A stretch of DNA of 64,000 nt from a virus, in IMG/VR virus record IMGVR_UViG_3300036846_000867, positions 1 to 64,000 of that record. One strand, 5' to 3'. The notes below the pieces were generated by a model. The model ran no database searches and was not told the DNA's origin. It saw only the letters and a list, made by a program, of their open reading frames with translations. Both the position numbers and the translations under genes were made by a program. Numbering within the stretch: the stretch's first letter is position 1; each line of letters begins with the position of its first letter. Of this stretch, positions 128-29,076 are shown one piece after another.

Positions 128-408
128 GGTGGTCGCACATGATGTAGGCCTTGCAAATAGCTGCGATAAGCATTGGCAAAGGAGTAGCTGACTGCCGCCA
201 GTACCAGCCGCCGGTCGGCCCCAGGTGCACCGACAAATTCCCAGCCAAGCATAACCTGGGTAACGAACTCGGCCTTCAGCCCGACTGCGTCCAAATCCGG
301 CTCTTCGGCGATGATGCGCACCAGCAATTCGCGCAGATTTACCTGCGTCCAGGTTTGCTGGTAAGCGCCAGTCGTGCCTGTGTCAGTATGCGTATCGGTC
401 CAGGTCAT
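1..408 (-). CDS. Hypothetical protein, first 136 codons only (ORF open to window edge), with an (EQAG)n tract
   Basis: Own translation: ATG at 408 overlaps the integrase stop (ATGA), MTWTDTHTDTGTTGAYQQ..., no stop down to base 1. Absent from the ORF track because there is no stop in the window. GC3 is high. Confidence 0.5.
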   Translation of the reverse strand, partial: MTWTDTHTDTGTTGAYQQTWTQVNLRELLVRIIAEEPDLDAVGLKAEFVTQVMLGWEFVGAPGADRRLVLAAVSYSFANAYRSYLQGLHHVRPPEQAGEQAGEQAGEQAGEQAGEQAGEQAGEQAGEQAGEQAGEQ

Positions 409-1562
409 GGTGTTGTCCTTTCGTTGGCGGGGGGATGTTCGTTGATGGGAAGATATGCGGTGATGTCGAAGCCGGTCTGCCGCACCATTTGTAGGGTTTC
501 CTGCGCCAAATCGTGACGCGCTTTGGTCATAGACCGGCGCAAATCCTCCAGCGTCCAGTCATTACTGCCCATCGCTTGCGCCACCCGGTATTTGGCCCAG
601 CCAAAGCCGTTGATCGGCCTACTGCCGGTGGTGGTAAAGACGAACCGCGAACCGCGAAAGCGGGGCAGGCCCCGGAGGATATTGACCGCCGTTTGCGGCA
701 GCGGGACGCGCTGCTCGCGCTTGTTATTCGCCCGCCGCGCCGGGAGCGTCCAGACACCGGCTTCGAGATCGAGTTCGTTCCACGTCATCTCGGCGGTCTC
801 GCTGCGCCGCTGGCCCAGCAGCGCCAGCAACTGAAAAAAGGGGCCAAAGGGCCAGCCAAGCACGCCGCTGGCCTGCCAGAACGCCTTTAGCTCGACGTGG
901 CTCAGCAGCCGCGTGCGCAGCTTGGGCTTCGCCAGGATTTTGATCCTAGCGACCGGATTGCCGGGCAGCTTGCCGCGCTCGACAGCCCAGTTATACATCC
1001 GACCAAGTAGGCGAATTTGGTTCCACCGCTCGATTTCACCGCGTTGGCCCGGCTTGACCGCATCGCCAAAAGCCTTGATCTCGACGGGGGTGATCGAGGC
1101 TGCGGGCTGATCGGCAAAATCGGCTATCGCCAGCATGCGGCACAGTAATTCCCAATTCTGCTGGTAGGTCTTTAACCGGTGATTGGCCCTGGACCACGCC
1201 AGATAATCGTCTATCAAACTCTGTAGCGTGTAAGTAGCGGCCTTCTCGGCCTCTGTCTGCTGGCGCTTGGCCTCGATGGGATTGATACCCGCCTTCGCCT
1301 TCAGCATCGCTTCCCTGGCCAGATCGCGGGCCTGGGCGATGCGGGGGATGATCGCGGTGCTGCCAAGCGTGACCGGCGTAAATTTCCCGTTCGGCCATGT
1401 ATTCGCAATCCAGCTTTTCTTGCCGTTGGGGCTGATACGGATGCCGAAGGAAGGCAGGAGCGTATCCCAAATCACGGTGTGCGTCGGGCTGCCATCCTTG
1501 GTCAGTTTGGTTGATGGCCCCAGCCGATCAACCATGCCTTGTGTGAGATTGGTGACGGTCAT
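405..1562 (-). CDS. int: Tyrosine-recombinase (P4-type) integrase, paralog 1
   Basis: 385-aa ORF. Arm domain FGIRISPNGKKSW; core LLALLGQRRSE..WTLPA..NKREQRVPL..FVFTTTG..EDLRRS..ITAYLP. Start overlaps the stop of paralog 2 (ATGA). Confidence 0.8.
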   Translation of the reverse strand: MTVTNLTQGMVDRLGPSTKLTKDGSPTHTVIWDTLLPSFGIRISPNGKKSWIANTWPNGKFTPVTLGSTAIIPRIAQARDLAREAMLKAKAGINPIEAKRQQTEAEKAATYTLQSLIDDYLAWSRANHRLKTYQQNWELLCRMLAIADFADQPAASITPVEIKAFGDAVKPGQRGEIERWNQIRLLGRMYNWAVERGKLPGNPVARIKILAKPKLRTRLLSHVELKAFWQASGVLGWPFGPFFQLLALLGQRRSETAEMTWNELDLEAGVWTLPARRANNKREQRVPLPQTAVNILRGLPRFRGSRFVFTTTGSRPINGFGWAKYRVAQAMGSNDWTLEDLRRSMTKARHDLAQETLQMVRQTGFDITAYLPINEHPPANERTTP

Positions 1563-3208
1563 GGCTGGAGCGCGCGGGCCTCCTGTCCGGTCGTGCCGGT
1601 ATCAGTATGCGTGTCATTCCAGGGCATGGTGGGAAGATATGCGGTGATGTCGAAGCCGGTCTGCTGCAACATGTGCAGTGTGTCGTGCTCCAACTGGTGA
1701 CGCGCCTTTACCATCGACCGACGCAGATCATCCAGGCACCAATCATTGATCCCCGTCGCCCGCACCAAACGGGTTTTGAGATTACTAAAGCCTCCTATTG
1801 GTGAGCCGTTGGTGGTGAAAACGACATCGGAACGCCGATAATGAGGTATCGTCTTGAAGATATCTACCGCCTGCGGCGGTAGGAACACACGACGCGGGCG
1901 GTGGTTAGTCGTCCTTGTCGCCGGAATCGTCCACACGGCAGCAGCTAGATCGATTTCCGACCATCTCATCTCGGCAGTCTCGGTCCGTCGTTGACCAAGG
2001 AGGACAAGCAACTGAAAATAGGGGCCAAGAGGATAGCCAAGCGTACCGCTGGCAATCCACAAGGCACGAAGCTCAGCATCTGTCAGCACGCGAGCGGTCT
2101 TTGTCTTCTTGACCGCAATCTTGATCCCGGTGACAGGATTACTGGGCACCTTGTCGTGTGCAACGCCCCAGGAATAAAGCCGCCTAAGAGCCGCGATTTG
2201 GTGCGCGTGTGCACTATACCCACGCTGCCCCGGTAGAACCGCGTAGGCAAAACTAGCGATCTGCGCCGTGGTAATCTGCGCTGCCGGTTGATCGGCGAAA
2301 TCCGTCAGTGCCAACACACGACAAAGTGCATAAACAGCACCGGTATAGGTACTCATCCTCCAGCGTGTCTCGCTCCCACGGAGATAATCCTCGACCAACT
2401 TGCGCAGTGTGTAGTTCTTCCACGTCTCCTCCTCGACAAAGAACTGCCGCCACCGAGGATCACGCCGCTTCGCCAATTCGGCGCGATCTTGTGCCCACTG
2501 ACGTTTGGCGCTGGTGACGTTCATGCCCATAGAGATCGGCGGATCGCCAACGTTTTTGCCGGGGATCAGTTCGGCGCTAAAGGCGGGCTGATACGTCTTT
2601 GTCTGCGGCTTACCGTGCCAGGAGAAGATGTGAACAAACTTCGCCTGCCCTGCGGGAATCCTTGGGCATTTACCAGATATCCGGATAGCAAGACCGGGAA
2701 CGGTCGCGTCATTAAAGCGAATTGTCTCGCGTGATCGTGGCGGCATATTCTTTATCGCCATCGCAATAGCCTCATCGCTCAGATTGAGCCTTTTCGTTTC
2801 GCTCCCTATTTCCGCCTCGATATGTTGCAATTCGGTTTGAAGGATAACCCGCTTCGCTTCGTTTTTACGAAGGGCTTCTTTAACAGCAAGGAGACGCCCA
2901 TCAATGGTAACTGGGCGGAAGTTCTTGTCGTTTAAGTTAACGCCGCGCTTCACCAGTTCGATCAGATGGCGAGCCTCCTTGCGGGCTTCTGCGACCGGCA
3001 TGCTACAGACATCGGCAAAGCTATGAGAGATTTGCTTGCCGTAAGGCGTGCCGGGAGTGGGTATTCGACATTGGATCACCCAGCTTTTCCGGTTCTGACT
3101 GACCCGCACGCCAAAGCCCTTCTGAATAGCGTCCCATTCGATCATGTTGGCTTTGCCTGCGGGCGGGCGCAGGCCGTCAATAAGCTGATCAGTCAGTTCC
3201 CTACCCAT
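1559..3208 (-). CDS. int: Tyrosine-recombinase integrase, paralog 2, with duplicated arm-type N-terminal domain
   Basis: ORF track 1559-3370 trimmed to ATG 3208 (MGRELTDQLIDGL..). Two arm-like repeats (GFGVRVS, GLAIRIS); core LLVLLGQRRTE..DDLRRS..ITAYLP. 34-nt identity 1631-1664 vs 448-480. Confidence 0.75.
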   Translation of the reverse strand: MGRELTDQLIDGLRPPAGKANMIEWDAIQKGFGVRVSQNRKSWVIQCRIPTPGTPYGKQISHSFADVCSMPVAEARKEARHLIELVKRGVNLNDKNFRPVTIDGRLLAVKEALRKNEAKRVILQTELQHIEAEIGSETKRLNLSDEAIAMAIKNMPPRSRETIRFNDATVPGLAIRISGKCPRIPAGQAKFVHIFSWHGKPQTKTYQPAFSAELIPGKNVGDPPISMGMNVTSAKRQWAQDRAELAKRRDPRWRQFFVEEETWKNYTLRKLVEDYLRGSETRWRMSTYTGAVYALCRVLALTDFADQPAAQITTAQIASFAYAVLPGQRGYSAHAHQIAALRRLYSWGVAHDKVPSNPVTGIKIAVKKTKTARVLTDAELRALWIASGTLGYPLGPYFQLLVLLGQRRTETAEMRWSEIDLAAAVWTIPATRTTNHRPRRVFLPPQAVDIFKTIPHYRRSDVVFTTNGSPIGGFSNLKTRLVRATGINDWCLDDLRRSMVKARHQLEHDTLHMLQQTGFDITAYLPTMPWNDTHTDTGTTGQEARALQP

Positions 3209-3215
3209 CGAAAGG

Positions 3216-3227
3216 ATTATACCCCCC
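3216..3227 (-). promoter_or_regulatory. G-run/TATAAT promoter-like box (GGGGGGTATAAT) 7 nt upstream of the int paralog 2 ATG
   Basis: Read on minus strand. Same motif class as 6585, 8469, 13410 and 15219. The spacing implies a leaderless or near-leaderless mRNA. Confidence 0.4.
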
Positions 3228-3234
3228 TTTCTTC

Positions 3235-3456
3235 TCAGTTGCTCAGCCGATGACGGATCGATTGCAGATCGGCGATCATCCCATCGAGCACATCGAGCTT
3301 GATGTGCGCCACCGCCACGTCCCGGTCGCGGTCGCCCAGAACGATCACCGTCATGCCGCAATCCGGGCAAAAGCCGATCTTGATCGTGTCCGCATCATAG
3401 ATGCCGTCGTCCCCGATATCTTCGTGTTCGTGGAATTCGACTTTATCCTGGGTCAT
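3235..3456 (-). CDS. Hypothetical protein (73 aa, acidic, CPDC motif)
   Basis: ORF track. Co-oriented in the leftward operon; 14-nt overlap with the upstream gene. Confidence 0.55.
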   Translation of the reverse strand: MTQDKVEFHEHEDIGDDGIYDADTIKIGFCPDCGMTVIVLGDRDRDVAVAHIKLDVLDGMIADLQSIRHRLSN

Positions 3457-7105: not shown

Positions 7106-8052
7106 GGCCAGATAATCCTTTTCATTGCCGCATAGAACTGAGCCTTTGGATCGAAGGATTGCGACGGGAACATCAACGCATCGACCATCTGCCCAAGATG
7201 ACGGGCCTTGTTGGGACCGGTCTCGCGCAGCAGCGCCCCGATCAACCGCCGCGTCAGCGGGATCAGCAAGCCGTCGTAGCTGTCGGTGGCTTCCTCCAGC
7301 CGCAGAAAGACCGGCCGAAGCACTTCCCACGTCGAGCGGCCCTGGATCAGCAGCGCGGCGATCTCGGCAATCGCGTCGTTGTCGGCATCGAGGATCGAGA
7401 TGATCCGCTTGGCTTCGTTGCGGTCGCGGGCGTCGTAGACACGCTCCAGCAGCGTGATCGCCTTGCGCGGCTGGCCGGTCGCCTCCTCAACGACCAGCGA
7501 CAGGATGTCGTTGGACGGGGACCAGCCCTCGCTGTCGCAGATGATTTGCAGCAATTCCTCGATGTACTGCCGCTCGACCGGCTTCAGGGCCACCGGAAAG
7601 CATCGCGTCTTCCAGGTTTCCGGGATGCGGTGCGCTTCGGTGGTGCAGAGCGCGAAGAACAGATGATCGGGCGGCTCTTCCAGGGCCTTCAGCAGCGCCT
7701 GCTTGGCAGGGGCCGACAGCCCGTGGCATTCATCGATGATGAACATCTTGTACGCTACGCCGCTCAGCGGCAGATGCTGACCGTGATCGATGAGTTCCCG
7801 GATCATGTCAATCGAGCCCGACGAGCCGCCGTCGATCTCGATCAATTCCGCGCTCAGATGGTTGGAAATGATCCGCGCCACGGTGGTCTTGCCGATCCCG
7901 CTGGGACCGGTCAGCAGATAGGAATGCGGCGGGCTGTTGCTCTCCAGCCGCCGCTGAAGCTTGGCCATCGGCTCGTCATGCCCTAAAACTTCACCAAAGG
8001 AAGCCGGGCGATATTTAACAATTAAAGGGGCGTCCATCAACTGCGGCACCAT
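7102..8052 (-). CDS. Clamp-loader ATPase (DNA pol III gamma/tau or RFC-like)
   Basis: KYRP..FGEVLGH, Walker A GPSGIGKTT, FIIDECH, ..KTRC sensor. Alternative start ATG 8037 (TGATG overlap with the polymerase stop). Confidence 0.85.
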   Translation of the reverse strand: MVPQLMDAPLIVKYRPASFGEVLGHDEPMAKLQRRLESNSPPHSYLLTGPSGIGKTTVARIISNHLSAELIEIDGGSSGSIDMIRELIDHGQHLPLSGVAYKMFIIDECHGLSAPAKQALLKALEEPPDHLFFALCTTEAHRIPETWKTRCFPVALKPVERQYIEELLQIICDSEGWSPSNDILSLVVEEATGQPRKAITLLERVYDARDRNEAKRIISILDADNDAIAEIAALLIQGRSTWEVLRPVFLRLEEATDSYDGLLIPLTRRLIGALLRETGPNKARHLGQMVDALMFPSQSFDPKAQFYAAMKRIIWP

Positions 8053-10967
8053 TCTGCACTGTCACGCGCATGCGAGCGGACCAACTGCATCGGTCTGCTG
8101 TTCCCCGTCCGATGGATTAGCTGACGCCGTGCCGCCGCGTTGATCAGCGCCCCGGTGGCGTTGTGATGGTGCGGCGGGCCGACGACCGTCTCGACGTGAA
8201 TGCGAAAATCTTCACCGATACCGGTCCAGCCACGCGGCAGGCTGGCGATCTCGGTAAGGGCGCGGTTCATCCAATCGCCTGCATTGTCCGCTATCTGATC
8301 GAGCGCAGTGTCCCGCGCCGCGCGGCTTGCCGCCGCATCAAAGGGACTGGAACGGCGCGGCGGCGGGCGTCCGCCAAACGGCGGTGACGGTGGCGGTACG
8401 CCATTGCCACGCCCGTTGCCGCGCACGTAATCGCCCTCGACGACGCCGATTGGCTCCATGTCACACCAATTATACCCCCATGACGCTTCGACAATCAGCG
8501 GCACGATCTGCCACTGATAGCGCACTTTTGTCATCACGCGGGTAATCTCGTCGAGATATTCCTCGATACGGTCCTCCTGCTCCGGCACGATAAATGTCAG
8601 ATCGTCATGGACGTTAATGCGCGGCATCAGATACATGTCGTCGTATTCAATCGCCAGCCTCTGCAATTCGTTCTGGCAGTCGAGCACGATCACCGCTTCA
8701 CCGTTCTGGATCGGTGTAATTACCGGTTCGTTGCCGGTCATGACGCCAAACCGCATCTGACCGTTGAGCGTTCTGACACCGCCGGTATCGCGGTATTCGG
8801 CGCGACGCGCGTTGAGCCAGCCCTTGGCGACACGGAACCGCGTCCAGAAATCACCGAGAAGATCGCTGATCACGGCGAACGGGATGCCGGTGCGCTCGGC
8901 GCAGTTTTCCGCCGTGGTGCCAAAGAAGGATGCAAAGACAAAATCTGTCTTGATCAGATCGCGGCCCTTCTTGCGGAGCACCGCTTCGGGGGCCGTATCG
9001 AGCAATAATTTGGTGCGCAGCCGGTCGAGATATTCCGGATAGATGTCGATCAGCTTGCCCAGCCAGTGACTGTGGATGTCCTCTTTGTCGATAAAGCTCT
9101 TGCACAGTACCGGATCGCGGCTGGCCATCCCATAGAGACGGCCCTGAATTTGCCCCTCGTCGCAGGACAGCAGCACATGGCCGGGCGGCGCAATAACCTG
9201 TTTGCGGAATTCGCGGTGCCGCCGTTTCGGCCAATTCTGGATATTGGTGTCGTTGGCCGATGTGCGAAACGTCGCGACGTGCATCGTGGTGTAGGATGGA
9301 TGCAGCAGCCCATCGCTGTGCAGAGCGTCCAGTGTCAGCACCGGTTCGATGTAATTGCTGACATGCTTGACCGCCTCGCGGTAGTCGAGCACCGTCTGGG
9401 CCAGCGGATTGCCGTGATCGGCCAATGGCCGGATAAGCTCGTCACCCGTACCATAAGATTTCTTATTGCGTGGTAGGGCGCATCGGCCGAATTCCGCCAG
9501 GGCGATGCCGACATGGTCCGGATTGCCGATGTTGAATTCCTGCTGTCGCGCACGCTCGAATTGGCGAACTTCATAGATCGTCGCGGCTTCGGAGCGCTTC
9601 CGGGCGGCGATATCGCCCCATTGTTCCTTGAGCAGCGCCGCCGCCTCCCGGTCGGCGGGCAGGCCCAAGAATTCCATGTAGGCGGTGCTCTCGATTGCCC
9701 CGATCAGACGAGCATATTCGTCCTTCAGGATACCGGGATCGTCGTGCAGGCGATGGTCGATCCGGATCGATGCCCAGGCATCGAGGCCGTTATACGGAAG
9801 GATTTCGTCGAGACTGTAGGCTTCGATATGCTTCGGATCGACGTTCGTCAGCTTCTTGATGTTGGTGCCCAGGATGATCCGCGACATTGCGCCGAGATCG
9901 AGCATGGAATTACGAGCATGATAGAGCCGTCCCAGTGCCATGCTGTCGTCGAAGGCGTGCGGCAGCCACGTATCATCGACGCCAAGGCTGCGGGCGGTCC
10001 ACAGCAGCCACACCAGTTCGAAGACCGCGTTGTGGGCTGTCCATTGCCGGTCGGCGGCGGCTGCCAGGAGCAGAAGCTCGCCCCAATCATTGGGCGCGTC
10101 GGGATGCTTCACCGGGAAGGCGAAGGATAATTTGCCGTCGCTCAGTGCGCCGCTCAATATCCGCGAATCACGATGGTATGGTTTGAGCTTCTCGGTCTCG
10201 ATGTCGATCCCGATCTTGCCTTCCAGACGAAGATAGAGGGCGTAGGCTTCCTCCTCGTTAAAGACCGAGATCACATCGGTCGGTTTTGGCTTCTCGATGA
10301 CCGGCGGTCGCCATTTGTCCACAGCGGCGAAGAAATTCTTGATCGAGGCGGCGAACACCGGATATTCGCGCGCCCGGTCGCCGCCATTGTGCAGCAGAAA
10401 CGACGGATGAAACGTCGGATAGTACCACAGCGCGTGCTCGCCAATTTCGACCGGGAATTTGACGCCGACCATATGCGTGATCGGGGCTTCGTTGAAGAAC
10501 CGCATCAGCGGTGCGCCGCCCAATCCCAGGATCGCCTTGAACGGCCTGATATTGATATCCTCTTCGAGATAGACCGAACAGCAATGCATCTCGTGCCCGG
10601 TCGGCGTGCGGTTGCCTTGCGGGCGACAACGCACCGCATTGCTGTAGGCGACGCGCTCCTTGAGACGGTGCGGGATGTGCTGCCGCAGCATCTTGCCGGA
10701 GGGACCGACAAACGGCTCGCCACGGTCGTCCTCCTCTTCGCCAGGGGCCTCTCCGAAGGCGAGGATGTCTGCCTCGGGCAGACCGCTCATGGCCATCTGC
10801 GGCGTCCCCAGGCGCTCCCACGTCGATTGTAGCGGGCAGGCGTCGCAGCCGCGTTCACCGCTCATCGTTTCGGCCTCCCGGCTGATCGAGGCAAACCGCG
10901 AGCCCGGTCGGACGGCGGCCCGTCGCGGCTCGGTCAGGACGGCATCGCCGTCGAAGCAAAAGCCCAT
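8037..10967 (-). CDS. DNA polymerase: family-4 UDG-like domain + 3'-5' exonuclease + PolA-type polymerase
   Basis: GCDACPL..GEAPGEEEDDRGEPFVGPSG (UDG4-like), GIDIETE (Exo I), SCDEGQIQGRL and NVHDDL (PolA motifs A/C). Start is ambiguous: 10967 (GAGGGA RBS) or 10865 (GGGAGG RBS). Confidence 0.85.
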   Translation of the reverse strand: MGFCFDGDAVLTEPRRAAVRPGSRFASISREAETMSGERGCDACPLQSTWERLGTPQMAMSGLPEADILAFGEAPGEEEDDRGEPFVGPSGKMLRQHIPHRLKERVAYSNAVRCRPQGNRTPTGHEMHCCSVYLEEDINIRPFKAILGLGGAPLMRFFNEAPITHMVGVKFPVEIGEHALWYYPTFHPSFLLHNGGDRAREYPVFAASIKNFFAAVDKWRPPVIEKPKPTDVISVFNEEEAYALYLRLEGKIGIDIETEKLKPYHRDSRILSGALSDGKLSFAFPVKHPDAPNDWGELLLLAAAADRQWTAHNAVFELVWLLWTARSLGVDDTWLPHAFDDSMALGRLYHARNSMLDLGAMSRIILGTNIKKLTNVDPKHIEAYSLDEILPYNGLDAWASIRIDHRLHDDPGILKDEYARLIGAIESTAYMEFLGLPADREAAALLKEQWGDIAARKRSEAATIYEVRQFERARQQEFNIGNPDHVGIALAEFGRCALPRNKKSYGTGDELIRPLADHGNPLAQTVLDYREAVKHVSNYIEPVLTLDALHSDGLLHPSYTTMHVATFRTSANDTNIQNWPKRRHREFRKQVIAPPGHVLLSCDEGQIQGRLYGMASRDPVLCKSFIDKEDIHSHWLGKLIDIYPEYLDRLRTKLLLDTAPEAVLRKKGRDLIKTDFVFASFFGTTAENCAERTGIPFAVISDLLGDFWTRFRVAKGWLNARRAEYRDTGGVRTLNGQMRFGVMTGNEPVITPIQNGEAVIVLDCQNELQRLAIEYDDMYLMPRINVHDDLTFIVPEQEDRIEEYLDEITRVMTKVRYQWQIVPLIVEASWGYNWCDMEPIGVVEGDYVRGNGRGNGVPPPSPPFGGRPPPRRSSPFDAAASRAARDTALDQIADNAGDWMNRALTEIASLPRGWTGIGEDFRIHVETVVGPPHHHNATGALINAAARRQLIHRTGNSRPMQLVRSHARDSAEWCRS
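8469..8479 (-). promoter_or_regulatory. GGGGGTATAAT box inside the polymerase ORF (possible internal promoter or chance)
   Basis: Exact 11-mer shared with 3216-3226 and 13410-13420, but it lies in coding sequence (WGYNW). Confidence 0.2.
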
Positions 10968-10978
10968 CTCTGTCCCTC

Positions 10979-11042
10979 GGCAAATCGGCGGCGTTTTCTC
11001 GGCGCAAATCGGCGGCAAAATCGGCGTTTACGGTGCAAATCC
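10979..11042 (-). repeat. Four CCGATTT(T)GC / GGATTTGC boxes directly upstream of the polymerase start
   Basis: Plus strand shows GCAAATCGGCGG at 10980 and 11004, GCAAAATCGGCG at 11015 and GCAAATCC at 11035, in the clamp-polymerase spacer. Confidence 0.8.
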
Positions 11043-11119: not shown

Positions 11120-12199
11120 TCAGACGGCTTTCCCGTGGACACCAAACAGGAATTCGTTAGGGCCACGAAACACCAGGGCATGTCGGTCCACATAGTCGAA
11201 CACCACACGGTCGGCCGCCCCCAATGCCCTGAATATACGGCGCGGCTCCAACTGGATCGGATTGATGTCGAACGGCTCTTCGGACTGGACCAGATAGTAT
11301 TCCGCCGAGAACGAGATGCTGTCCTCGTAGAATAACTTCGTCGCCCCTTCCTCGACCGACATCGACATCCGCGCCTTGCTCTTGTCTTCCGCCAGCGCAT
11401 CGACGCGGCGGACAAAGGCGGCCAAGCTCTCGCGGTCAATCGGCAGCGAGCGCTGCTGGCCGCGCAGCGCCCCGGCAATCGCCCGCAGATCGCTCTTCAG
11501 ATCGGCCTTGCGGCGGATCATCAGCTTGGTCGTCGGCGTCTGGCAGTAGATGCTGTCCCCGGTGAGGGAGACAGCCGTGTCTCCCCGGCTAACTTCTGCC
11601 AGCAGCGCCAGCGCGTCCGGGGCCAGCGTGATCTTGTCAGCGAAGGCGTCGTTGCGGTCGCCGAGACGACAGGAGGCAATCGCATTGTTATCGCTGGCAT
11701 AGGCGTAAAGACCGTCTGGTTCGTTTTCGATGGCAACGCCATACAGCCCCACCGAAATGTAGGCTTGCGAGCCGCAGCCCAGCGCCGCCAGTTGTAAGCC
11801 GCGCCCGAAGCCTTCCGTCACCGGGACCATCGTGCCGCGCCCGTCCCACGGCAGCGGCGGGATGGTGATGTCGCCGGCGATCAGCGAGAACGAGCCGGTC
11901 ATCTCGTAACGCTTGGCTTCGCTGGGGTCTTCACAAAGCCAGGAGAGCTTGTTGTCCTCGACCAGCAACCGGAAATCTCCGGCCGGTGCCGTGCTCAGCA
12001 CTTGCAGGAAGCGGGCGGTATCCACATAGGCTTCGGCGTCGATCCCCAGTGCCACTTCCACTTCCATAATGCCAAACGGCGAATGGCCGCGCACCGATGT
12101 CGGTGTGATGTGCAGCGCCTTATAGGATGGTGACAGAAGCTTCTCGTGCGCCAGCAGCGTGAACGGACGAAGCTGCTGGTAGATTTCGCTGGCTTGCAT
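11120..12199 (-). CDS. Sliding clamp (DnaN-like)
   Basis: 359 aa. AAGGAG RBS. Placed between dpdA-like and the polymerase in the replication operon. Size and weak resemblance to beta clamps only. Confidence 0.55.
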   Translation of the reverse strand: MQASEIYQQLRPFTLLAHEKLLSPSYKALHITPTSVRGHSPFGIMEVEVALGIDAEAYVDTARFLQVLSTAPAGDFRLLVEDNKLSWLCEDPSEAKRYEMTGSFSLIAGDITIPPLPWDGRGTMVPVTEGFGRGLQLAALGCGSQAYISVGLYGVAIENEPDGLYAYASDNNAIASCRLGDRNDAFADKITLAPDALALLAEVSRGDTAVSLTGDSIYCQTPTTKLMIRRKADLKSDLRAIAGALRGQQRSLPIDRESLAAFVRRVDALAEDKSKARMSMSVEEGATKLFYEDSISFSAEYYLVQSEEPFDINPIQLEPRRIFRALGAADRVVFDYVDRHALVFRGPNEFLFGVHGKAV

Positions 12200-12209
12200 C
12201 GGTGCTCCT

Positions 12210-13295
12210 TCAGGATGGGCTGATCCAGTCTTCCAGCATCTCGGTGTATTTCTTGAACGGCGGCTGGTTCAGGAGCCCCAGCGGATCGTCGTGCCACGCC
12301 CGCATCCGTGCCGCGTGGTTGTGCGAATTGATGTAGTAGTAGCTCGCCAGCGGACGGCGGTTGCCGGCATAGATCAGCGCGGGCAGGATCGACGGACTGA
12401 CACCGGCCGCCATGTAGAGATCGAATTCCGGCAGTGTCACCGCCGGGGCATTGCCGCTCGCGCCTGTCACGAAACCTGTAGAAGGGATGAATGTCGGCCG
12501 TGGATTTAACCGGACCAGTTCCTCCAATTGCAGAAAAAAGCGGGCGGCGATGTAGGCGTGCGACAGCCATGTCCGCCGCGATTTGCGGTTCTCGCGCAGA
12601 TCGTCGAGATCGATGTCGAGCGCCTCAAACCGCGCGCGGATAAAATCCAAATCCTCGCCCTCGACCATCGAAATATCGCGGGCATGGGAACTGTGGATCA
12701 GCGTCTCGTCGAGATCGGGAAACAGCACGTCATTGTGCTTGCGCTTGGTGGTGTGCCGATGATTGAGCCGCCCGGTTGGAATGCCGTGCAGCATGATCCG
12801 GCCCCATTTCGGCCCGCGCAGCCAGGACGAGCTATCGGCGCTGGCCCACGGATATTTGAACAGCGTCGGCACGTGGGAATTGCCAAAGGCGTGGACCAGC
12901 ACGGTCGGTTCGCCCGCCGCATTGACGATCTTCGACCACGCAAGCTGGAGCGCGTGGTCAATCGCCAGCCCGCGTGTGCTGGTGGTCGAGAAGCCGACAT
13001 AGTCGCAGCCCAGATCGAGCATCCGGTCGATCCAGTCGAGGCTCTCGCGGGCGTGCCAGATCGGGATCGGATCAAAGCCGCGACGGCGCATCTCCTTCAG
13101 ATTGTTGAGGCTGATCTGCGCCGCTTCCTCCGGTTCGTCGGGCGCAATATGGTCGAGCACGACGTATTTGCCGATCCAATCGCTGTTTGCTTCGAGAAAT
13201 TCGCAATACGCGTTGAGATCGATGGCTCGGCCAAGCCGCCATGCCGAATAGCCGCCGCTGTCCACCAGCGTCTTCACGGAACCGTTGGTGGTCAA
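12210..13295 (-). CDS. dpdA: DpdA-like (tRNA-guanine-transglycosylase fold) DNA transglycosylase
   Basis: TTG start 6 nt after AAGGAG. N-terminal LVDSGGYSAW...YVVLDHI resembles the TGT/DpdA DSGG catalytic-Asp motif. Embedded in the replication operon. Confidence 0.65.
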   Translation of the reverse strand: MTTNGSVKTLVDSGGYSAWRLGRAIDLNAYCEFLEANSDWIGKYVVLDHIAPDEPEEAAQISLNNLKEMRRRGFDPIPIWHARESLDWIDRMLDLGCDYVGFSTTSTRGLAIDHALQLAWSKIVNAAGEPTVLVHAFGNSHVPTLFKYPWASADSSSWLRGPKWGRIMLHGIPTGRLNHRHTTKRKHNDVLFPDLDETLIHSSHARDISMVEGEDLDFIRARFEALDIDLDDLRENRKSRRTWLSHAYIAARFFLQLEELVRLNPRPTFIPSTGFVTGASGNAPAVTLPEFDLYMAAGVSPSILPALIYAGNRRPLASYYYINSHNHAARMRAWHDDPLGLLNQPPFKKYTEMLEDWISPS

Positions 13296-13316
13296 AGGCC
13301 GCTCCTTTCAAGAATT

Positions 13317-13403
13317 GGACGCTGGCCTTCACGGGGGTTGCTAGCCCGTGAAGGATACTACTAGCGAGAGCAGCACGCTTTAAGGCGAGAAGCGCCAGCG
13401 TCC
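13317..13403 (-). other. Structured leader: nested perfect 10-bp inverted repeats
   Basis: GGACGCTGGC (13317-13326) pairs with GCCAGCGTCC (13394-13403). CCTTCACGGG (13326-13335) pairs with CCCGTGAAGG (13345-13354). Confidence 0.8.
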
Positions 13404-13426: not shown

Positions 13427-15202
13427 TCAATCGGTGGCGCAGGCACGCTCGCCGGTCACCGGATCGGGGAAGCAGGCTGCGCCTTCGGCGTCTTCCTCCT
13501 TGGGCTTGAGGATGCCCATCCGCTTGCCGTTGGTATTGAACAGCGCGCACGATTTGGCCCCGCCGTTCCAGGCGCGCAGATAGAGACTTTTGAAAGCCTC
13601 GTAGCTGACGCCGTCGCCCTCACCAGCAACCTGCCCGGAGACGTTGCACGTCTTGCTGATCGCGCTATCGACGAAGCGCTGGGCACGGCACAGCACGTCC
13701 ACGTGTTCTTCGCCGCTGATCTGGTTGGCGGTCCGCCCACGCACGCCGTAATGGGCATAGGCATAGTCGGTGACATCGAAGACGCGCGGCCCCTGCGGTG
13801 TCAGAACCGTGCGCTCGCCTTCCATCATGAAGACCGGCTCGATCCCGGAACTGACATAATCGGCCGCTTGACTGATCGTGCCGGTCGGGGCAATCGATGT
13901 CAGGAGGCCGTTGCGCAGCCCGTGAAGGCCAATCTCATGCCGCAAATCTTCCGGCAATCTGCGGAAGAACTCCCCTTCGACATATTTGTCTACATGCCAG
14001 AGCGGGAATGGCCCGCGTTCCTTAGCCAGTTCACAGCTTGTTTGGTAGGCGCGGACAAGGATGCGCTCAAGGATTTCATCCTGCTTTGCGAGATATTGCG
14101 GTGTCGCATAGGCCAGTGAGCAAACTTCTAGCGCGTTCGCCATCCCGGTGACGCCGACGCCCATCCGCCGCTTCGCCTTGGCTTCCGCCTCCTGTTGCGG
14201 CAGCGGATAGATCGTGCGGTCGATGACCCGGTCGAAGGCCCGCACCGCCACATCGACGGCATCGTCCAGGCGCTCCAGATCGATCTCGTAGCGCACCGTC
14301 TGCTTGCCAGATTGCGCGGCCAATTGAATGCCGTTGCCCTCGTAGACCGGGCGCAGCATCTTGACCAGGTTAACGCTGCCCAGGAGGCACGCCCCCCACG
14401 GCGGCAGCGGCTGCTCGGCGCAGGGATTGGTCGCGGTAATCTGTTCGCAGTAATACAGCGGATTGAGCCGGTTGATGCGGTCGATAAAGATCACGCCCGG
14501 CTCGGCCCAGTCCCAGTTGTTCTCCATGATCGCGGCCCAGACATCGAGCGCACGCACCTGTCCGAACACCGTATCGCCGAACCGCAGCTTGTAGCGCCCG
14601 TCGCATTCCAGCGCTGCCATGAATTCATCGGTGACGGCAATCGAGATATTGAAATTGGTCAGGCTCGACTGGTCCTGCTTGGCGCGGATAAATTGCATTA
14701 TATCGGGGTGCTGGATGTTCAGCACGCCCATCATCGCGCCGCGCCGCTCGCCGGCCGACATCATCGTCTCGCACATCTGGTGCCAGCACGCCATGAAGCT
14801 GATCGGACCGCTGGCGGCGGCTCCATAACCGAGACCGCGCACCGGTTCACCGGCTGGCCGCAGCGTCGAGAAATGCATGCCGATGCCGCCGCCCGCCCGC
14901 AGTGTCAGTGCCGCGTCGCGCAGCGCCTCGAAGATGCCCGTCGTGTTATCGGGGATTTCCCCCATCACGAAGCAGTTGAACGCGGTGGTTTCGAAGGGAC
15001 GGCCGACGGCACGTTGCTGCCGCCCGGCCGGTAGGAGCGTCTGATCGCGCAGATAGTTCAATAATCGTCGGAATTCCTGCGGTTCGTCGGCTACGGTCCG
15101 CGCATATCTGATGCAGTAATCGTCGAATGTTTCACCGGGATCGCGGTATTTCATTGCGTGGATCAACTGACCGTATTCGTTGCGCGGCCCGTAGATTTCC
15201 AT
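13427..15202 (-). CDS. nrdJ: Ribonucleotide reductase, class II-like (single chain)
   Basis: 591 aa; catalytic loop ATNPCAEQPL..CLLGSVNL. No small-subunit gene nearby. GGAGGAG RBS. Confidence 0.8.
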   Translation of the reverse strand: MEIYGPRNEYGQLIHAMKYRDPGETFDDYCIRYARTVADEPQEFRRLLNYLRDQTLLPAGRQQRAVGRPFETTAFNCFVMGEIPDNTTGIFEALRDAALTLRAGGGIGMHFSTLRPAGEPVRGLGYGAAASGPISFMACWHQMCETMMSAGERRGAMMGVLNIQHPDIMQFIRAKQDQSSLTNFNISIAVTDEFMAALECDGRYKLRFGDTVFGQVRALDVWAAIMENNWDWAEPGVIFIDRINRLNPLYYCEQITATNPCAEQPLPPWGACLLGSVNLVKMLRPVYEGNGIQLAAQSGKQTVRYEIDLERLDDAVDVAVRAFDRVIDRTIYPLPQQEAEAKAKRRMGVGVTGMANALEVCSLAYATPQYLAKQDEILERILVRAYQTSCELAKERGPFPLWHVDKYVEGEFFRRLPEDLRHEIGLHGLRNGLLTSIAPTGTISQAADYVSSGIEPVFMMEGERTVLTPQGPRVFDVTDYAYAHYGVRGRTANQISGEEHVDVLCRAQRFVDSAISKTCNVSGQVAGEGDGVSYEAFKSLYLRAWNGGAKSCALFNTNGKRMGILKPKEEDAEGAACFPDPVTGERACATD

Positions 15203-19051: not shown

Positions 19052-21053
19052 TTTCATTCTCCAATGCCGTCAGAAACATGGCTACTTTGATCAATTCTTC
19101 AGTTGACATCAGTTCCCGCGCCTTGCCAAACCGTCGCATGATCAACCCGTTGGTTGTTCCCCAAGGCCAACCACGCCGCGCATCCAAAGCCCTGCTGCGT
19201 GGTTCAATTGATGCCTTTAGTCTCTCCTCATGCTCCCGACGCCCGATAATCGGCGCGGGAGCTTTACGGGTGGGTATCGGCGGCATACCACACAGCGCCT
19301 CGGCAAAATCATGCATCTCAATTGGCGTTATCGGAAGATCGAACTGCTTAGCCAAATTGACATAATGCGCCGACAATTCGGATGTTAGCTCTGACTTCCC
19401 CAACTCATGGGCATGTAAATCGGTAAGCTCCGAACTTATATGAAAAATCCCCGCTCCAGGAGATGACGAAGAAGAAGGCGAAGACGACGCGCCATCAGGA
19501 TCGTTGTCATCACGGTCTAGTAAACTCTCCTGTTGCTCCTCTTCAATACGCTTAGTCACTTCGAGCATCAACGGATCGTTAAAAGTGACAACGAGCGCCC
19601 GCGTCTGCTTACCGTGCCGTCGTACCACACGCGCAATCGCTTGCTCGATATAAGCACGCGTGCGGTAGACACAACACAAGGCCATGTGCGATGCAGCAGG
19701 CGCGTCCATACCAATATAAGCCTTGCCCACAGTGATCAGAATATCATATCTACTACGGCAAAAATCTCTAATGACAGCATCGGCGTTTGGCTCGTCGGTA
19801 ATCGCCAGACCAACACGAAGATGAGGATAATTCCGGCGCATCCAGTCTCTTCGCTTTGTCGCATTTGGTTGGCTCTCAACTACAATAATCGCCTGACAAT
19901 CCGGATGTTGTCGCCTCGCCTGTTTCCAGCAATCGAGCATCTCGATAATAGCAGCAGTGGCAGCATCTCCCGTCACCGCAGCCCGTATCTGATCACGGAT
20001 TTCTGCCTCGTCGTCACTGCCAAATTTATCAAATTTTTTCTCATTACCATCACGATCAAGATACTCAACCTTAGCATCATGACGATGAAACTCGACAGGA
20101 AGAATAGCCTGAGGCTTAGCATTTAACGCTTGTGTGCGAGAATACTGAATTGTTATCCAGTCAGGATGCACCAGATCAATATTACCATCTGGTGTATAAG
20201 GAACAAAAGCACATGGCCTCCCGTCACCACGATATAAACCGCCGCTCATAATAACCAAAACGGCTGCTCGCTCGACCAGTGGTCGGATTGCTCGTATCCA
20301 TACTTTATCAGTCGAGACAAATTGTTCCTCATCCAGAAACAAAGCATAACGCTTACGCTTAAATTCTTCGAGATGCATATCGGGATCGGCGATAATCGAT
20401 TGATATGTCGTTATATATCCCCGCGCGCCACGACACGGATCGGCGACATTGTCAGCCGCTCGGTAACTGGGATGTTCGACTCCATAAGTGTCAAGCAATC
20501 CAGCGAGGAATTTCGGTATAATCTCTCCCTGCGCCCGCAGGCTCGAACGCGGTGTGAGCCAACAAAAACCGTTGGCAATTCTTTCCGCTATTGCAGTCTG
20601 AGCAAGATAGGGAAGCGTCTGCTTGCCGCCGCCCGGTGTCACCAAAGCCATGATCCGTGTTCTTGTACCCGGCTCGCCAAACCGCAAACAAACTTCGAAA
20701 AACTCACGCTGAAACGAACGCGCTTCCAATCTTTGTGAAATAGCTTGTATGATAGATGAACGCATGATTTTTCCTCCCTTACTTAGGTTACAAAGAACAC
20801 ACAAAGCCTGCATTTCATGTTGATTTGTTCTGTGGCTCAGTCGCCACGGAATAATGTGATCCGCGTGCCAGCCCTTTGGCGGCAGGGGATCACCACAGCG
20901 CGCACAACGACCGTCCGCCGCATACCACAAGCGATTGCGCGCCCGTGATGAACGCAGCAGCCGGGGCGAATTTTTTGGTGACACCGGTCTCATAGGTAGA
21001 ATCTGACCATCCTCACAAACAAGATGGGCATCGTCTTCTGGGACCGGGATCAC
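19029..21053 (-). CDS. HNH endonuclease domain fused to an SF2 (ResIII/DEAD-like) helicase
   Basis: GTG start. HNH CARCG..HADHIIPW..CVLCNLSKG. Helicase motifs TPGGGKQT, FLDEEQ, ITVGKAYIGMDAP, QAIARVVRR. Internal AAGGGAGGAAAAATC-ATG at 20765. Confidence 0.8.
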   Translation of the reverse strand: MIPVPEDDAHLVCEDGQILPMRPVSPKNSPRLLRSSRARNRLWYAADGRCARCGDPLPPKGWHADHIIPWRLSHRTNQHEMQALCVLCNLSKGGKIMRSSIIQAISQRLEARSFQREFFEVCLRFGEPGTRTRIMALVTPGGGKQTLPYLAQTAIAERIANGFCWLTPRSSLRAQGEIIPKFLAGLLDTYGVEHPSYRAADNVADPCRGARGYITTYQSIIADPDMHLEEFKRKRYALFLDEEQFVSTDKVWIRAIRPLVERAAVLVIMSGGLYRGDGRPCAFVPYTPDGNIDLVHPDWITIQYSRTQALNAKPQAILPVEFHRHDAKVEYLDRDGNEKKFDKFGSDDEAEIRDQIRAAVTGDAATAAIIEMLDCWKQARRQHPDCQAIIVVESQPNATKRRDWMRRNYPHLRVGLAITDEPNADAVIRDFCRSRYDILITVGKAYIGMDAPAASHMALCCVYRTRAYIEQAIARVVRRHGKQTRALVVTFNDPLMLEVTKRIEEEQQESLLDRDDNDPDGASSSPSSSSSPGAGIFHISSELTDLHAHELGKSELTSELSAHYVNLAKQFDLPITPIEMHDFAEALCGMPPIPTRKAPAPIIGRREHEERLKASIEPRSRALDARRGWPWGTTNGLIMRRFGKARELMSTEELIKVAMFLTALENENDGSATA

Positions 21054-21136
21054 AGCCTAAACAGAAACCAGCACGGCAGGCAATCGCTTTTTCGCTCCTT
21101 GGCCGGGGCACACCAGAGATCGAGCGTCCAAAATAT

Positions 21137-24242: not shown

Positions 24243-25580
24243 ATGGCCATGAATTGGCCACGTTGGATCAAGCGGGAATGGCATCGGGTAGCAACTGCTG
24301 CCTTGAGCGCCGAATTCTCTCCGGCCTATGTGATCCCGCCATCGCCGCTGCGGGAGCCGCTCTACGGCGATATCGCGGCGTGCTGGCACCACTACGCTTT
24401 AGACAGCAGCAGCATCCCTGCTATCGCGCCCTCGCCCAGCGACAGCGCCGCCTATAACATGGCGCGATGCATCTGGCTGGCCGACGCCATCGCCGCCAAT
24501 GAGCCGGTCACCGGCTGGCGGTTGAACAGCGCACGACGGCGGGCCTTCGACCGGTTCAATTTCACGCTCGTCCCGTTGGGACGGTCGGCGGGATTGGCGG
24601 TGCGGGCATCGCGGGCGCTGCACGGCGACGCAGCCTGGAACATCGTCCGGTGCAAATGGCTGGAAGCCCAAATCGGCCATCTGGTGCTGAGCGGGGCCGC
24701 CGAGACGGTGCGGACGCCAGCCGAAGCAGCTGTCAGCGGCGATGTCGGACCGGCGGTCATTCTCGACTGGACCAATCTGACATACGGCATCGAGATCGAA
24801 TGCATCCGGCCAACGGATATCTCGATGGCCGATTTCGCGCGGCGGCTGACCGAAGCCGGTGTGCCGTGTAATTCCGAGAACTACAACCATCACGTGCGGA
24901 ATTACTGGAAGATCGTGACCGACGGTTCGCTCAGCGACCGGCGGGGCATCGGCATGGAACTGGTGAGCCCGATCCTGCGGGGCACGGCGGATTTCGAAAT
25001 AATCCGGAAAGTGTCCGAAATCCTGATCGGGCCAAACCGGACACGGCCGATCTGCCGGATCAACAAGACATGCGGGCTGCATGTCCATGTCGGGATGCCG
25101 GTGCAGATCAATGCGCCCGGCGCGCACCGGCTGCCGATCAACGTGCTGCGGCTGTACAACCACTACGAACCGGTGATCGACAGCCTGATGCCGCTCAGCC
25201 GGCGGGCCAATTCCTACGCGCGGCCGACCGCCTTCAATGAGCGGATCGCGGCATCGCCCAATCTCGACCGGCTGCGGACCAGCTACGGCTACGACCGGTA
25301 CCGGAAAGTAAATCTGGAGAGCCTGTGGCGGCACCGGTCAACCGGCGGCACGATTGAATACAGGCAGCATGCCGGGACGACCGAGGCCGACAAGATCATC
25401 GCCTGGGCAACGATGGTGCTCAAGATGACGGCGGTGGCCAACAGCGCTCCAGCGCTGCCCGAGGGGCCGCCGACGCTGGAAGGGCTCCTGGGGCTGGTCG
25501 GCGCGGATGAGGAGGCCCTGGCCTTCTGGACGCGGCGGCAGGCGCTGCTGGCTCCGGCCGACGCCCGGATCGCCGCCTAG
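24243..25580 (+). CDS. Amidoligase_2-family (glutamine-synthetase-like COOH-NH2 ligase) enzyme with ~170-aa N-terminal extension
   Basis: YGIEIECI..WKIVTDGSL..GMELVSPIL..KTCGLHVHVG..GTIEYRQH. GAGGGAG RBS. Confidence 0.8.
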   Translation: MAMNWPRWIKREWHRVATAALSAEFSPAYVIPPSPLREPLYGDIAACWHHYALDSSSIPAIAPSPSDSAAYNMARCIWLADAIAANEPVTGWRLNSARRRAFDRFNFTLVPLGRSAGLAVRASRALHGDAAWNIVRCKWLEAQIGHLVLSGAAETVRTPAEAAVSGDVGPAVILDWTNLTYGIEIECIRPTDISMADFARRLTEAGVPCNSENYNHHVRNYWKIVTDGSLSDRRGIGMELVSPILRGTADFEIIRKVSEILIGPNRTRPICRINKTCGLHVHVGMPVQINAPGAHRLPINVLRLYNHYEPVIDSLMPLSRRANSYARPTAFNERIAASPNLDRLRTSYGYDRYRKVNLESLWRHRSTGGTIEYRQHAGTTEADKIIAWATMVLKMTAVANSAPALPEGPPTLEGLLGLVGADEEALAFWTRRQALLAPADARIAA

Positions 25581-28242: not shown

Positions 28243-29076
28243 ATGAGCAGGACGATGAAATTGATGTGGGCCTATGGCTCAAATCTTAACAAGCGCCAGA
28301 TGCTGCTCCGCTGCCCCGCAGCGGTGCCGCTGGAGGCGCTGACCGTACAAAATCTCATCCTGCGCTTTCGTGGCGTCGCCGATGTTGCCTATCGCACCGG
28401 GGCGTATTGCGAGGGCGCGTTGTGGGCGATCACGCGCGACTGCGAGCGCGCTCTCGACGATTATGAGGGCGTCGGATCGGGCGGCTTCGGCGGGCTCTAC
28501 CGCAAATGCCATTTCGACTATGTCGATCCGGACAGCGGCGAGCAGCACCGCGTGCTGTATTACAAGATGAACCGTCACGGCATCATGCCGCCCAGCGAGG
28601 GATATCTCGATTGCATTCTGCAAGGCTATGCCGATTTCGGCATCGATACCGCGCGGCTGATCAAGGCGGTCGAGCACGCGTGGCGCAGGAAGGACATGAA
28701 CGGCTTCATGGCCTATCGCTGGGAGAAAGCGGGCAAGCCGAGGATGGCGCGGATCGAGCGAATCGCGACGGTCTTCGAAGGCGACGTGGAGGGCGATCCG
28801 GAGCCGGGCGAGATTACCAAGCTGCCGACCAAGCAGGCCGCCAGGGACACCACGATGCCGGATGTCTGCCTGCGCGTCGATCCGGACAATCCGAACCATT
28901 GCCGCGCCGTCGTGCTGACCGAGAAAGGCGAGAGATACTTCGCCGAGAATATCAAGGCGGACAAGGAGGACACCGAATGGCGGTTCAAATTCTCGACGCA
29001 CGTGGTCGCGGGGCTGCTGCAAAAGAAGCGGCTGAGCGTCACCATCCTGGAGAAGCTGAGAAAGCTCCGCGCATGA
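28243..29076 (+). CDS. Gamma-glutamylcyclotransferase (GGCT/AIG2-like) domain fused to an unknown C-terminal half
   Basis: N-terminal WAYGSNLNKRQM..LRF..GALWAI..ALDDYEGV..YRK pattern of the GGCT fold. 277 aa. Confidence 0.75.
   Translation: MSRTMKLMWAYGSNLNKRQMLLRCPAAVPLEALTVQNLILRFRGVADVAYRTGAYCEGALWAITRDCERALDDYEGVGSGGFGGLYRKCHFDYVDPDSGEQHRVLYYKMNRHGIMPPSEGYLDCILQGYADFGIDTARLIKAVEHAWRRKDMNGFMAYRWEKAGKPRMARIERIATVFEGDVEGDPEPGEITKLPTKQAARDTTMPDVCLRVDPDNPNHCRAVVLTEKGERYFAENIKADKEDTEWRFKFSTHVVAGLLQKKRLSVTILEKLRKLRA

Follow-up and report, generated by a model that had tools for sequence, protein, structure and literature searches.

A phage DpdA of probably permuted architecture and a variant QueC in a metagenomic virus contig

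Background

DpdA is the point of entry to every known 7-deazaguanine modification of phage DNA, and the subfamily to which a DpdA belongs is the best current predictor of the share of a genome that is modified and of the type of base that it carries. In this study we examine a DpdA-type gene, dpdA, and a QueC-family gene, queC, that lie on the two arms of a 64,000-nucleotide stretch of virus DNA (positions 1 to 64,000 of IMG/VR record IMGVR_UViG_3300036846_000867). This stretch, called the window below, represents 56% of a contig of 114,005 bp, which continues for about 50 kb beyond it. The DpdA-type protein has its closest described relatives in the DpdA1 of phages 9g and CAjan. The 9g enzyme has DNA-modifying activity in vivo and inserts preQ0/G+ (PMC6884629), and that of CAjan is responsible for dPreQ0 that is specific to GA/GGC (PMC7544227).

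More distant points of reference are provided by the bacterial enzyme bDpdA, which belongs to the Dpd restriction-modification system of Salmonella Montevideo (PDB 7UI4, PMC10164549), and by the TGT family (PF01702), with which the window protein would share base exchange on a TIM barrel, two catalytic aspartates, a third aspartate for base recognition and a presumed double displacement. Dependence of a phage on its host for the modifying base also has a precedent. The DpdA-only phages (group 3 of Hutinet et al. 2019), among them Salmonella phage 7-11 as well as Mycobacterium phage Orion, draw on 7-deazaguanine precursors made by the host; 7-11 is modified, and Orion is unmodified on a host without the pathway (PMC6884629, PMC8306585). 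For QueC, a canonical signature was defined experimentally in 2026, when the substitutions Y35A and Y131A were found to inactivate the Escherichia coli enzyme (PMC13329287).

A first-pass annotation of the window, made from the letters alone, had read the gene as a DpdA-like DNA transglycosylase inside a replication operon, with QueC as the only enzyme of the deazaguanine pathway encoded alongside it, and had proposed that QueC together with an amidoligase could yield a non-standard derivative. We compare the locus here with its described and metagenomic relatives, and consider how far each of these proposals can be sustained.

Results

Assignment to the DpdA1 lineage

The open reading frame (ORF) at 12210-13295 was found as first described. 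Its translation contains both peptides that had been quoted in its support (LVDSGGYSAW and YVVLDHI), its neighbours are the sliding clamp and nrdJ as stated, and the identical product of 361 residues results when genes are called independently on a Logan contig. The suspected likeness to TGT and DpdA proteins is far above chance. The model phrog_887, 'queuine tRNA-ribosyltransferase', matches residues 7-174 (E 2.4e-34), and tblastn finds matches in 171 deposited phage genomes, all at less than 40% identity and covering at most 73% of the protein. The best tblastn identity, 37.6% over residues 10-177, is to the DpdA of Edwardsiella phage ZHS (OM621816), which also begins right at its DSG motif.

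A profile built from 57 family members finds 9g DpdA with 158.8 bits (E 3e-48) and RHEph04 DpdA with 161 bits, and 9g DpdA itself finds the window by tblastn at E 7e-21. With the 9g and CAjan enzymes, to which its identity is 23-27%, the window protein shares the motifs DSG(A/G), LD, P-x-x-H, HxFG and S-x-DSSSW and a helical subdomain after the nucleophile. Homologue searches returned 84 proteins, all of them metagenomic and none with a precomputed Pfam domain, while an exhaustive profile search with a limit of E <= 1e-3 reached 7,240 cluster representatives, 1,673 of them at <= 1e-30. From its sequence, the ORF is predicted with high confidence to encode a phage DpdA of the DpdA1 lineage, nearest to those of 9g and CAjan. 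Membership of two other classes was considered and rejected. Comparison of the family profile with gp042 of Cellulophaga phage phi19:2, which from its position and motifs we take to be a DpdA3 homologue, gave an hhalign probability of 0.4% (E 0.14), and the Pfam family DUF6610, used for DpdA4, has no match to the ORF.

Catalytic and pocket residues

The residues of the preQ0/guanine pocket and of catalysis that Kot et al. assigned in CAjan DpdA (PMC7544227) were carried over by an alignment (A4) that includes the CAjan, 9g and RHEph04 proteins. Both catalytic aspartates are present: CAjan D63 is aligned to D12 of the DSGG motif, the putative general acid/base, and CAjan D206 to D154, the putative nucleophile. 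The other equivalences are S64 to S13, F67 to Y16, D105 to D48, H132 to H81, G153 to G101, G154 to F102 and F189 to F137. Six of these columns (D12, S13, D48, H81, F137 and D154) are invariant in the alignment, while those of Y16 and G101 are not, and the second pocket glycine is replaced by Phe in the sub-lineage of the window and by Leu in most of the family. Residue spacings are nearly equal to those of CAjan, with 17 residues between F137 and D154 in both proteins. Across the 57 family members D154, H81, H135 and G138 are invariant and D12 is kept in at least 90%. The only cysteine columns conserved among close relatives are C31 and C97.

Evidence for a circular permutation

A structural model (AF2, from the alignment of 57 sequences) has a pLDDT of 89, a pTM of 0.89 and eight beta-alpha units, and its best matches in BFVD are phage proteins named 'queuine tRNA-ribosyltransferase' (E 2.8e-10 to 1e-7, TM 0.5). 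Residues 1-165 of the chain make up the catalytic core, which contains strands 3-8, and are followed by a hairpin insert with the helical subdomain (166-265) and by a segment of the form beta1-alpha1-beta2-alpha2 (about 291-345) that appears to have been relocated. DpdA1 proteins have about 60 residues ahead of the DSG motif, and in those of 9g and CAjan these form the unit beta1-alpha1-beta2. The window protein has just 11 residues there, and the corresponding unit lies at about 291-345. It also has about 190 additional residues after the nucleophile, including a hairpin insert of about 40 residues that the 9g and CAjan enzymes do not have. The order of secondary structure elements differs accordingly from that of DpdA1, with the DSG motif at residue 12 and the beta1-beta2 segment at 291-321. 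Of the strands in the model, six fall within residues 9-155, one at 292-296 and one at 315-318, which together make up the eight that a TIM barrel needs.

Profile comparisons point in the same direction. Residues 1-263 of the family profile align with residues 66-307 of 9g DpdA, and when the columns of the profile are rotated, the alignment to 9g is stretched from residue 66 back to residue 34 with a gain of 5 bits. By hhalign, the C-terminal segment of the family matches the N-terminal segments of 9g, RHEph04 and three non-permuted metagenomic relatives (P0071, P0072 and P0074) with a probability of 94.6% (E 7e-8), and the C-terminal region of the profile matches the N-termini of P0072 and P0074 (E about 3e-3). 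The C-terminal segment carries a motif L-x-S-Y-x-Y, in which L316, S318, Y319 and Y321 are invariant among close relatives. In relatives that are not permuted, equivalents of it are found N-terminally (LMSYYYL in P0072, MISYFYW in P0071, ILESWHYV in 9g and FLESYHYI in RHEph04). That the window protein is a circularly permuted DpdA1, with barrel strands 1 and 2 moved to the C-terminus, is thus suggested by sequence and is well supported but not proven.

The permuted architecture was seen in 158 of 220 retrieved relatives. It is not covered by the Pfam models, solved structures or deposited phage genomes that were searched, and the C-terminal half of the protein has no match in 50,697 deposited phage genomes. 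A full-text literature search for DpdA together with 'circular permutation' gave no relevant paper, and the 2023 paper on the subfamilies is silent on permutation. Compared with bDpdA and TGT, from which its strand order also differs by the permutation, the window protein shows no sequence match, no zinc site and no detected DpdB-like ATPase partner.

The DpdA of ZHS (in the region 8974-10564 of locus L012) takes another form. It has 266 residues and, unlike the window protein, no relocated C-terminal segment; the beta1-beta2 segment is missing from both termini. The 94-residue ZHS_63, encoded two genes downstream, has a similar hydrophobic pattern, but the idea that the gene is split in ZHS, with ZHS_63 supplying beta1-beta2, was rejected, since the match (E 0.15) is not significant.

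Position in the replication module

The dpdA gene was said to lie inside the replication operon, and this location is correct, although it is not peculiar to this phage. The order folE-dpdA-clamp-polymerase is found in 9g, RHEph04, VspDsh_1, CAjan, ZHS and the metagenomic loci L005-L007, and the slot directly upstream of clamp and DNA polymerase is standard for the lineage. By module organisation, ZHS is the nearest deposited phage. Its order queC-folE-dpdA ... clamp-PolA-clamp loader ... RecA matches that of the window, and its baseplate genes (Baseplate J, DUF2612) are similar.

In the window, dpdA is followed by a clamp whose ATG stands 10 nt past the dpdA stop codon (direct sequence reading), by a DNA polymerase in which a uracil-DNA glycosylase (UDG) domain is fused to PolA, and by further minus-strand genes for a clamp loader, a gp32-like single-stranded DNA-binding protein, a RecA-like protein and a PDDEXK nuclease. 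Upstream are the gene for a class II ribonucleotide reductase (RNR) and, preceding it, a NusG-like gene. Since the genes from nrdJ through dpdA, clamp and UDG/PolA to clamp loader are co-oriented and tightly packed, they are probably made together. The UDG-PolA fusion, with its N-terminal domain of the uracil-DNA-glycosylase family, also follows dpdA and clamp in relatives with about 35% DpdA identity.

We compared 84 loci of DpdA relatives, taking 10 kb to either side of each. Pathway genes are frequent near dpdA, with FolE in 71 of these 84 loci, QueC in 63, QueE in 28, QueD in 25 and QueF in 9, and FolE is usually encoded directly upstream of dpdA. The dpdA genes of 9g and CAjan are flanked by folE, queD, queE and (gat-)queC. 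That of the window is flanked instead by nrdJ, which fills the FolE slot in all four members of its sub-lineage. The combination of nrdJ in this slot with no pathway genes nearby was seen only in the three close relatives of the window (L002-L004).

One further locus of the 84 has an arrangement of its own. L005, which is also represented by a 106,805-bp JGI contig of P0046, carries a gene of the orotidine-monophosphate (OMP) decarboxylase family between folE and dpdA (L005 7316-7960), unique among these loci. Its product could be a decarboxylase of 7-carboxy-7-deazaguanine (CDG) that is non-homologous to the known, QueD-like DpdL.

Extent of the deazaguanine pathway

Pfam scans of essentially all called ORFs of the window found no FolE, QueD, QueE or QueF. 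Six-frame tblastn of the window with 16 phage FolE, QueD, QueE, QueF and QueC references, taken from 9g, RHEph04 and three metagenomic relatives, gave nothing below E 0.2 apart from the QueC ORF, and the motif CxxxCxxC occurs in no credible coding ORF of the window. The earlier statement that FolE, QueD and QueE are not in the window holds on all three counts, and the alternative drawn from it, that the phage either uses a host precursor or encodes the rest outside the window, was correctly stated.

A related IMG/VR contig of 84 kb, with a DpdA 86% identical to that of the window, was searched over 5.4-46.2 and 47.8-84.0 kb (about 77 kb, or about 92% of its length). FolE, QueD, QueE and QueF are absent from these regions, in which only DpdA, NrdJ, the variant QueC, the amidoligase and a gamma-glutamyl-cyclotransferase-like (GGCT-like) gene were found. 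The description 'QueC-only' therefore applies to the window and to about 92% of this relative, and is not shown for the whole genome of about 114 kb. To the right of the window the DNA encodes the tape measure, tail chaperones and a PhiTE-type tail tube; the window edge itself cuts a 902-residue tape-measure gene, of which the C-terminal end lies inside (L018). Taken together, we consider it quite probable that the sub-lineage is truly without FolE, QueD and QueE.

Both remaining genes are under purifying selection in this FolE-less sub-lineage. The ratio of nonsynonymous to synonymous substitution (dN/dS) is 0.11-0.13 for dpdA across three relatives (dS near 0.85-1.1) and 0.21 for queC, with dS of 0.7-1.1 for the pair, from which we conclude that the two genes are in use.

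A variant QueC subfamily

The QueC-like ORF on the other arm, with its PP-loop SGGMDS and zinc motif, was confirmed as a member of the QueC family (Table 1), and its translation contains both SGGMDS and CYRGERKHCGVCKPC. It is a divergent member: the NCBIfam equivalog model TIGR00364 gives 48.7 bits against a cut-off of 150.3, and blastp against E. coli QueC (b0444) gives E 0.57. In common with E. coli QueC, the Gat-QueC of 9g and Cap9, all of PF06508, it has SGGxDS, VPxRN, the lysine and four cysteines with the tyrosine. In alignments A3 and A5 these are SGGMDS at 23-28, IVPNRN at 90-95, K161 and a zinc motif C184-Y185-x6-C192-x2-C195-x2-C198, in which the first spacer is 7 instead of 8 and the essential tyrosine is kept. 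Two canonical motifs are broken. Of YxQxHxxE the tyrosine alone is retained (Y49-E-I-T-E), and YPDC is replaced by T-D-K-D-E. The ORF further has a Trp-rich C-terminal extension of about 50 residues.

The same motif losses recur in L019, L005, L020, L123, L160 and Bacteroides phage BS162P1, so that a subfamily can be recognised. It differs from canonical QueC, Gat-QueC and Cap9 by (S/T)xDKDE in place of YPDC, by the Trp-rich extension and by having no fused amidotransferase domain. Identity to the window protein falls from 80% in L019 through 56% in L005, 51% in L020, 37% in L123/L124, 34% in gp86 of BS162P1 and 32% in L164 to 27% in L160. Most phage QueCs encoded beside DpdA genes keep YxQxHxxE and YPDC, and the QueC of ZHS does so too. 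Against PDB sequences, the subfamily profile is about equally distant from Cap9 (E 2.3e-12) and from QueC 2pg3 (E 4e-11).

The genomic context of the subfamily is informative. In L020 the variant is the only QueC of a contiguous QueD-QueE-QueC-FolE cluster, in L160 it occurs together with FolE, QueD, QueE and DpdA, and in BS162P1 it is encoded directly upstream of a DpdA that is unannotated, and QueE lies 2 kb away. These three contexts indicate that the variant QueC acts on the CDG pathway. BS162P1 (OP172706; L200 12001-16015, gp86-gp91) is an isolated phage in which variant QueC, DpdA homologue and QueE are all annotated as 'hypothetical protein', and it offers a cultured system in which the variant could be tested.

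Directly upstream of queC in the window is a gene for a Lys/Ala-rich protein with homologues beside QueC or FolE in L005-L007. Its product may be a histone-like DNA-binding protein that travels with the module.

Amidoligase and other features of the window

The involvement of an amidoligase in the deazaguanine system, as proposed in the first-pass annotation, was rejected. In 81 other loci, the 10 kb to either side of DpdA contain no Amidoligase_2 and no GGCT-like gene, and relatives of the amidoligase are found in Porphyromonas, Arthrobacter and Bacillus phages, none of which were retrieved by the DpdA search. The gene lies 8-11 kb from both dpdA and queC, and CmoY, a DNA amide ligase, is asparagine-synthetase-like and thus of another superfamily (PMC12783734).

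The coordinates of the features are collected in Table 1. The window has a G+C content of 58.8%. No tRNA genes were found in it, and no sigma-70-like promoter was seen at 7-17 kb. The spacer of 131 nt between nrdJ and dpdA contains a perfect hairpin with a 10-bp stem (CCTTCACGGG / CCCGTGAAGG) and a 9-nt loop, with no T-run behind it. The region of low G+C between the divergent gene arms may be a regulatory or origin region. The place of the two tandem recombinase genes is taken in L004 by an HNH endonuclease and a metallophosphatase, and the region of L004 homologous to the tail-fibre-like gene gives a Pfam Collagen match.

Table 1. Features of the window, with positions counted from its first letter
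Feature	Coordinates	Strand	Remarks
Tandem tyrosine-recombinase genes (two)	405-3370	minus	Arm-DNA-binding and Phage_integrase domains; beside PDDEXK nuclease
UDG-domain/PolA fusion DNA polymerase	8037-11018	minus	Pfam UDG and DNA_pol_A (precomputed, for identical Logan gene and relatives)
Sliding clamp	11120-12199	minus	phrog_947; homologous to clamps downstream of dpdA in L006 and L007
dpdA-type gene	12210-13295	minus	361 aa; TTG start
Shine-Dalgarno sequence of dpdA, AAGGAG	13302..13307	minus	6 nt 5' of TTG; direct sequence reading
Hairpin in nrdJ-dpdA spacer	13326-13354		See text
Class II RNR (NrdJ-like)	13427-15202	minus	Directly upstream of dpdA; Pfam Ribonuc_red_lgC, E 4.8e-104; PHROG
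Low-G+C region	19500-21100		G+C down to 0.45 (window mean 0.59); weak, low-GC3 ORFs only
Amidoligase_2 protein	24243-25580	plus	Pfam E 8.8e-25; conserved in L019 (70%)
GGCT-like protein	28243-29076	plus	2.7 kb from amidoligase; conserved in the 84-kb relative (65%)
Lys/Ala-rich protein	33039-33695	plus	218 aa
QueC-family PP-loop ATPase	33765-34532	plus	255 aa; Pfam QueC PF06508, 59.7 bits (cut-off 22)
Tail-fibre-like protein	57126-60404	minus	1,092 aa; long collagen-like Gly-X-Y repeats
Tape measure, C-terminal end	63220-64000	minus	Cut by window edge

Discussion

The explanation that we favour, and consider rather likely as a whole, is that a permuted phage DpdA exchanges dG in the phage's own DNA with the help of host CDG and the variant QueC. 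By analogy with the chemistry of TGT and DpdA (PMC10164549, PMC7544227), the enzyme would flip a guanine out of duplex phage DNA, D154 would attack C1' and displace the guanine to give a covalent enzyme-DNA intermediate, and D12 of the DSGG motif would deprotonate the incoming 7-deazaguanine base and so close the exchange. Modification would take place after replication, and its most likely outcome would be that a 7-deazaguanine nucleoside takes the place of part of the dG and blocks restriction by the host. Gene content suggests that CDG is most likely taken from the FolE, QueD and QueE of the host, and the variant QueC would then use ATP to convert it into the base that is inserted, most probably preQ0 and possibly the amide ADG. 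Such a phage would resemble the DpdA-only phages in its use of host precursors, but those have no pathway gene at all, while this one retains a variant of the last-step enzyme.

A number of results weigh against this explanation. Pfam, including its TGT model, gives no match to the dpdA ORF at E <= 0.1, and searches of PDB sequences, whether with the family profile or with 9g DpdA, bring up no TGT or bDpdA. The Cys/His cluster that follows the nucleophile in TGT and bDpdA and forms their structural zinc site has no counterpart downstream of D154. When the model is compared with the PDB by Foldseek, generic TIM barrels come first; bDpdA (7ui4) ranks 21st (E 1.3e-2, TM 0.33), and TGT (2pot, probability 0.97 over 203 columns) is also placed below them. 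The tie to the mechanism of TGT passes by way of phage DpdA1 and is not direct, and the permutation is based on profile comparison and strand counting rather than on structural superposition. The product of the variant QueC is made uncertain by the loss of YxQxHxxE and YPDC, whose tyrosines are essential in E. coli (PMC13329287). The capacity of the host to make CDG is assumed. Finally, the missing genes could lie in the 50 kb of the contig outside the window, and in ZHS queD and queE are dispersed, 11-19 kb from dpdA.

Some of these points lose force on comparison with validated enzymes. With the 361-residue protein, even by family profile, a search of PDB sequences gives nothing at E <= 10, and NCBIfam has no match to the ORF. 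Since the validated 9g DpdA also has no TGT or DpdA match in the PDB, the failure to match TGT says nothing against DpdA function. Similarly, the zinc site that had been put forward as a check on DpdA is not discriminating: the cysteine cluster is missing from the window protein and equally from the 9g, CAjan and RHEph04 enzymes.

It has to be considered whether the phage has a complete preQ0 pathway, with folE, queD and queE in the part of the contig beyond the window, in which case the 'QueC-only' configuration would be an artefact of the window. The window does end at 64 kb of 114,005 bp, FolE accompanies most relatives, and the syntenic ZHS has a 71-kb genome with folE beside dpdA and with queE and queD away from its dpdA/folE/queC cluster. 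We nevertheless regard this as unlikely. The usual slot of FolE is occupied by nrdJ in every member of the sub-lineage, the roughly 77 kb of the 84-kb relative that were searched by tblastn contain none of FolE, QueD, QueE and QueF, and genes beyond the right window end are for tail morphogenesis. Scans of those regions of the window that match the places of queD and queE in ZHS (16-31 and 35-46 kb) found neither gene.

Less probable again is the suggestion that the variant QueC does not make preQ0, and either stops at ADG or joins CDG to another amine, so that a non-standard derivative would enter the DNA. The replaced motifs are on the substrate side, it has been argued that an altered signature predicts an altered function (PMC13329287), and the related Cap9 and QatC ligate CDG to amines (PMC13329287, 10.1101/2025.04.06.647259). 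In sequence the subfamily stands no nearer to QueC than to Cap9, and it has a conserved additional C-terminal segment. On the other hand, the variant stands for QueC in otherwise standard QueD-QueE-QueC-FolE clusters, for which the same function is the simplest reading, and it retains VPxRN, the lysine, the zinc cysteines and the essential tyrosine after the first of them. The version in which the amidoligase takes part is opposed by its lack of co-occurrence with DpdA in the 81 loci and by its distance from both partners.

A bolder form of this suggestion would combine the permuted DpdA class and the non-canonical QueC in a two-component system that turns host CDG into ADG or an N-substituted carboxamide by a route not described before. 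We give it a similarly small chance. If it were true, the permuted DpdA would amount to a sixth class of DpdA, abundant among uncultured myovirus-like phages of about 110 kb.

That the TGT-like and QueC-like proteins instead deazaguanylate a protein, as Cap10/Cap9 of type IV CBASS or QatC do, in counter-defence or regulation, is very improbable. Searched singly, the QueC-like protein matches only Cap9 among PDB sequences (E 0.033), and the 'QueC' model of PADLOC matches it (4.8e-9, 34.6 bits). The QatC models do poorly, with 21 bits over a partial stretch in PADLOC and 24 bits against a cut-off of 280 in NCBIfam, and the DpdA-like protein has no PADLOC match. It is instead homologous to the DNA-modifying 9g DpdA and belongs to a family that sits in replisome operons beside FolE; dpdA and queC are 20 kb apart on opposite strands, and Pfam and PADLOC scans of the window found no CD-NTase, QatA, QatB or QatD. 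Equally hard to credit is a decaying remnant, or a TIM barrel of other function in a lineage that has lost the pathway, for although FolE is gone from its usual place and generic TIM barrels lead the Foldseek list, dpdA is under purifying selection, as is its QueC partner, all catalytic and pocket residues are intact, and the gene has a strong ribosome-binding site and is tightly packed in its operon.

Conclusions

The exchange of dG by a permuted DpdA with host CDG and a variant QueC would extend a known system and does not overturn current understanding. What is noteworthy is the permutation, the QueC subfamily and the two-gene sub-lineage, and the first-pass annotation had passed over both of the truly unusual features, the permutation of DpdA and the non-canonical set of motifs in QueC. 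The permuted subfamily would be missed by annotation based on Pfam, given that none of the 84 relatives is labelled by Pfam and that at least 158 retrieved proteins have the architecture. The variant QueC provides a concrete test of the 'canonical signature' rule of 2026, as two of its motifs are broken and yet it replaces QueC in complete clusters. The sub-lineage with DpdA and QueC only may be seen as a natural experiment on which steps of the pathway a phage has to encode and which its host can supply.

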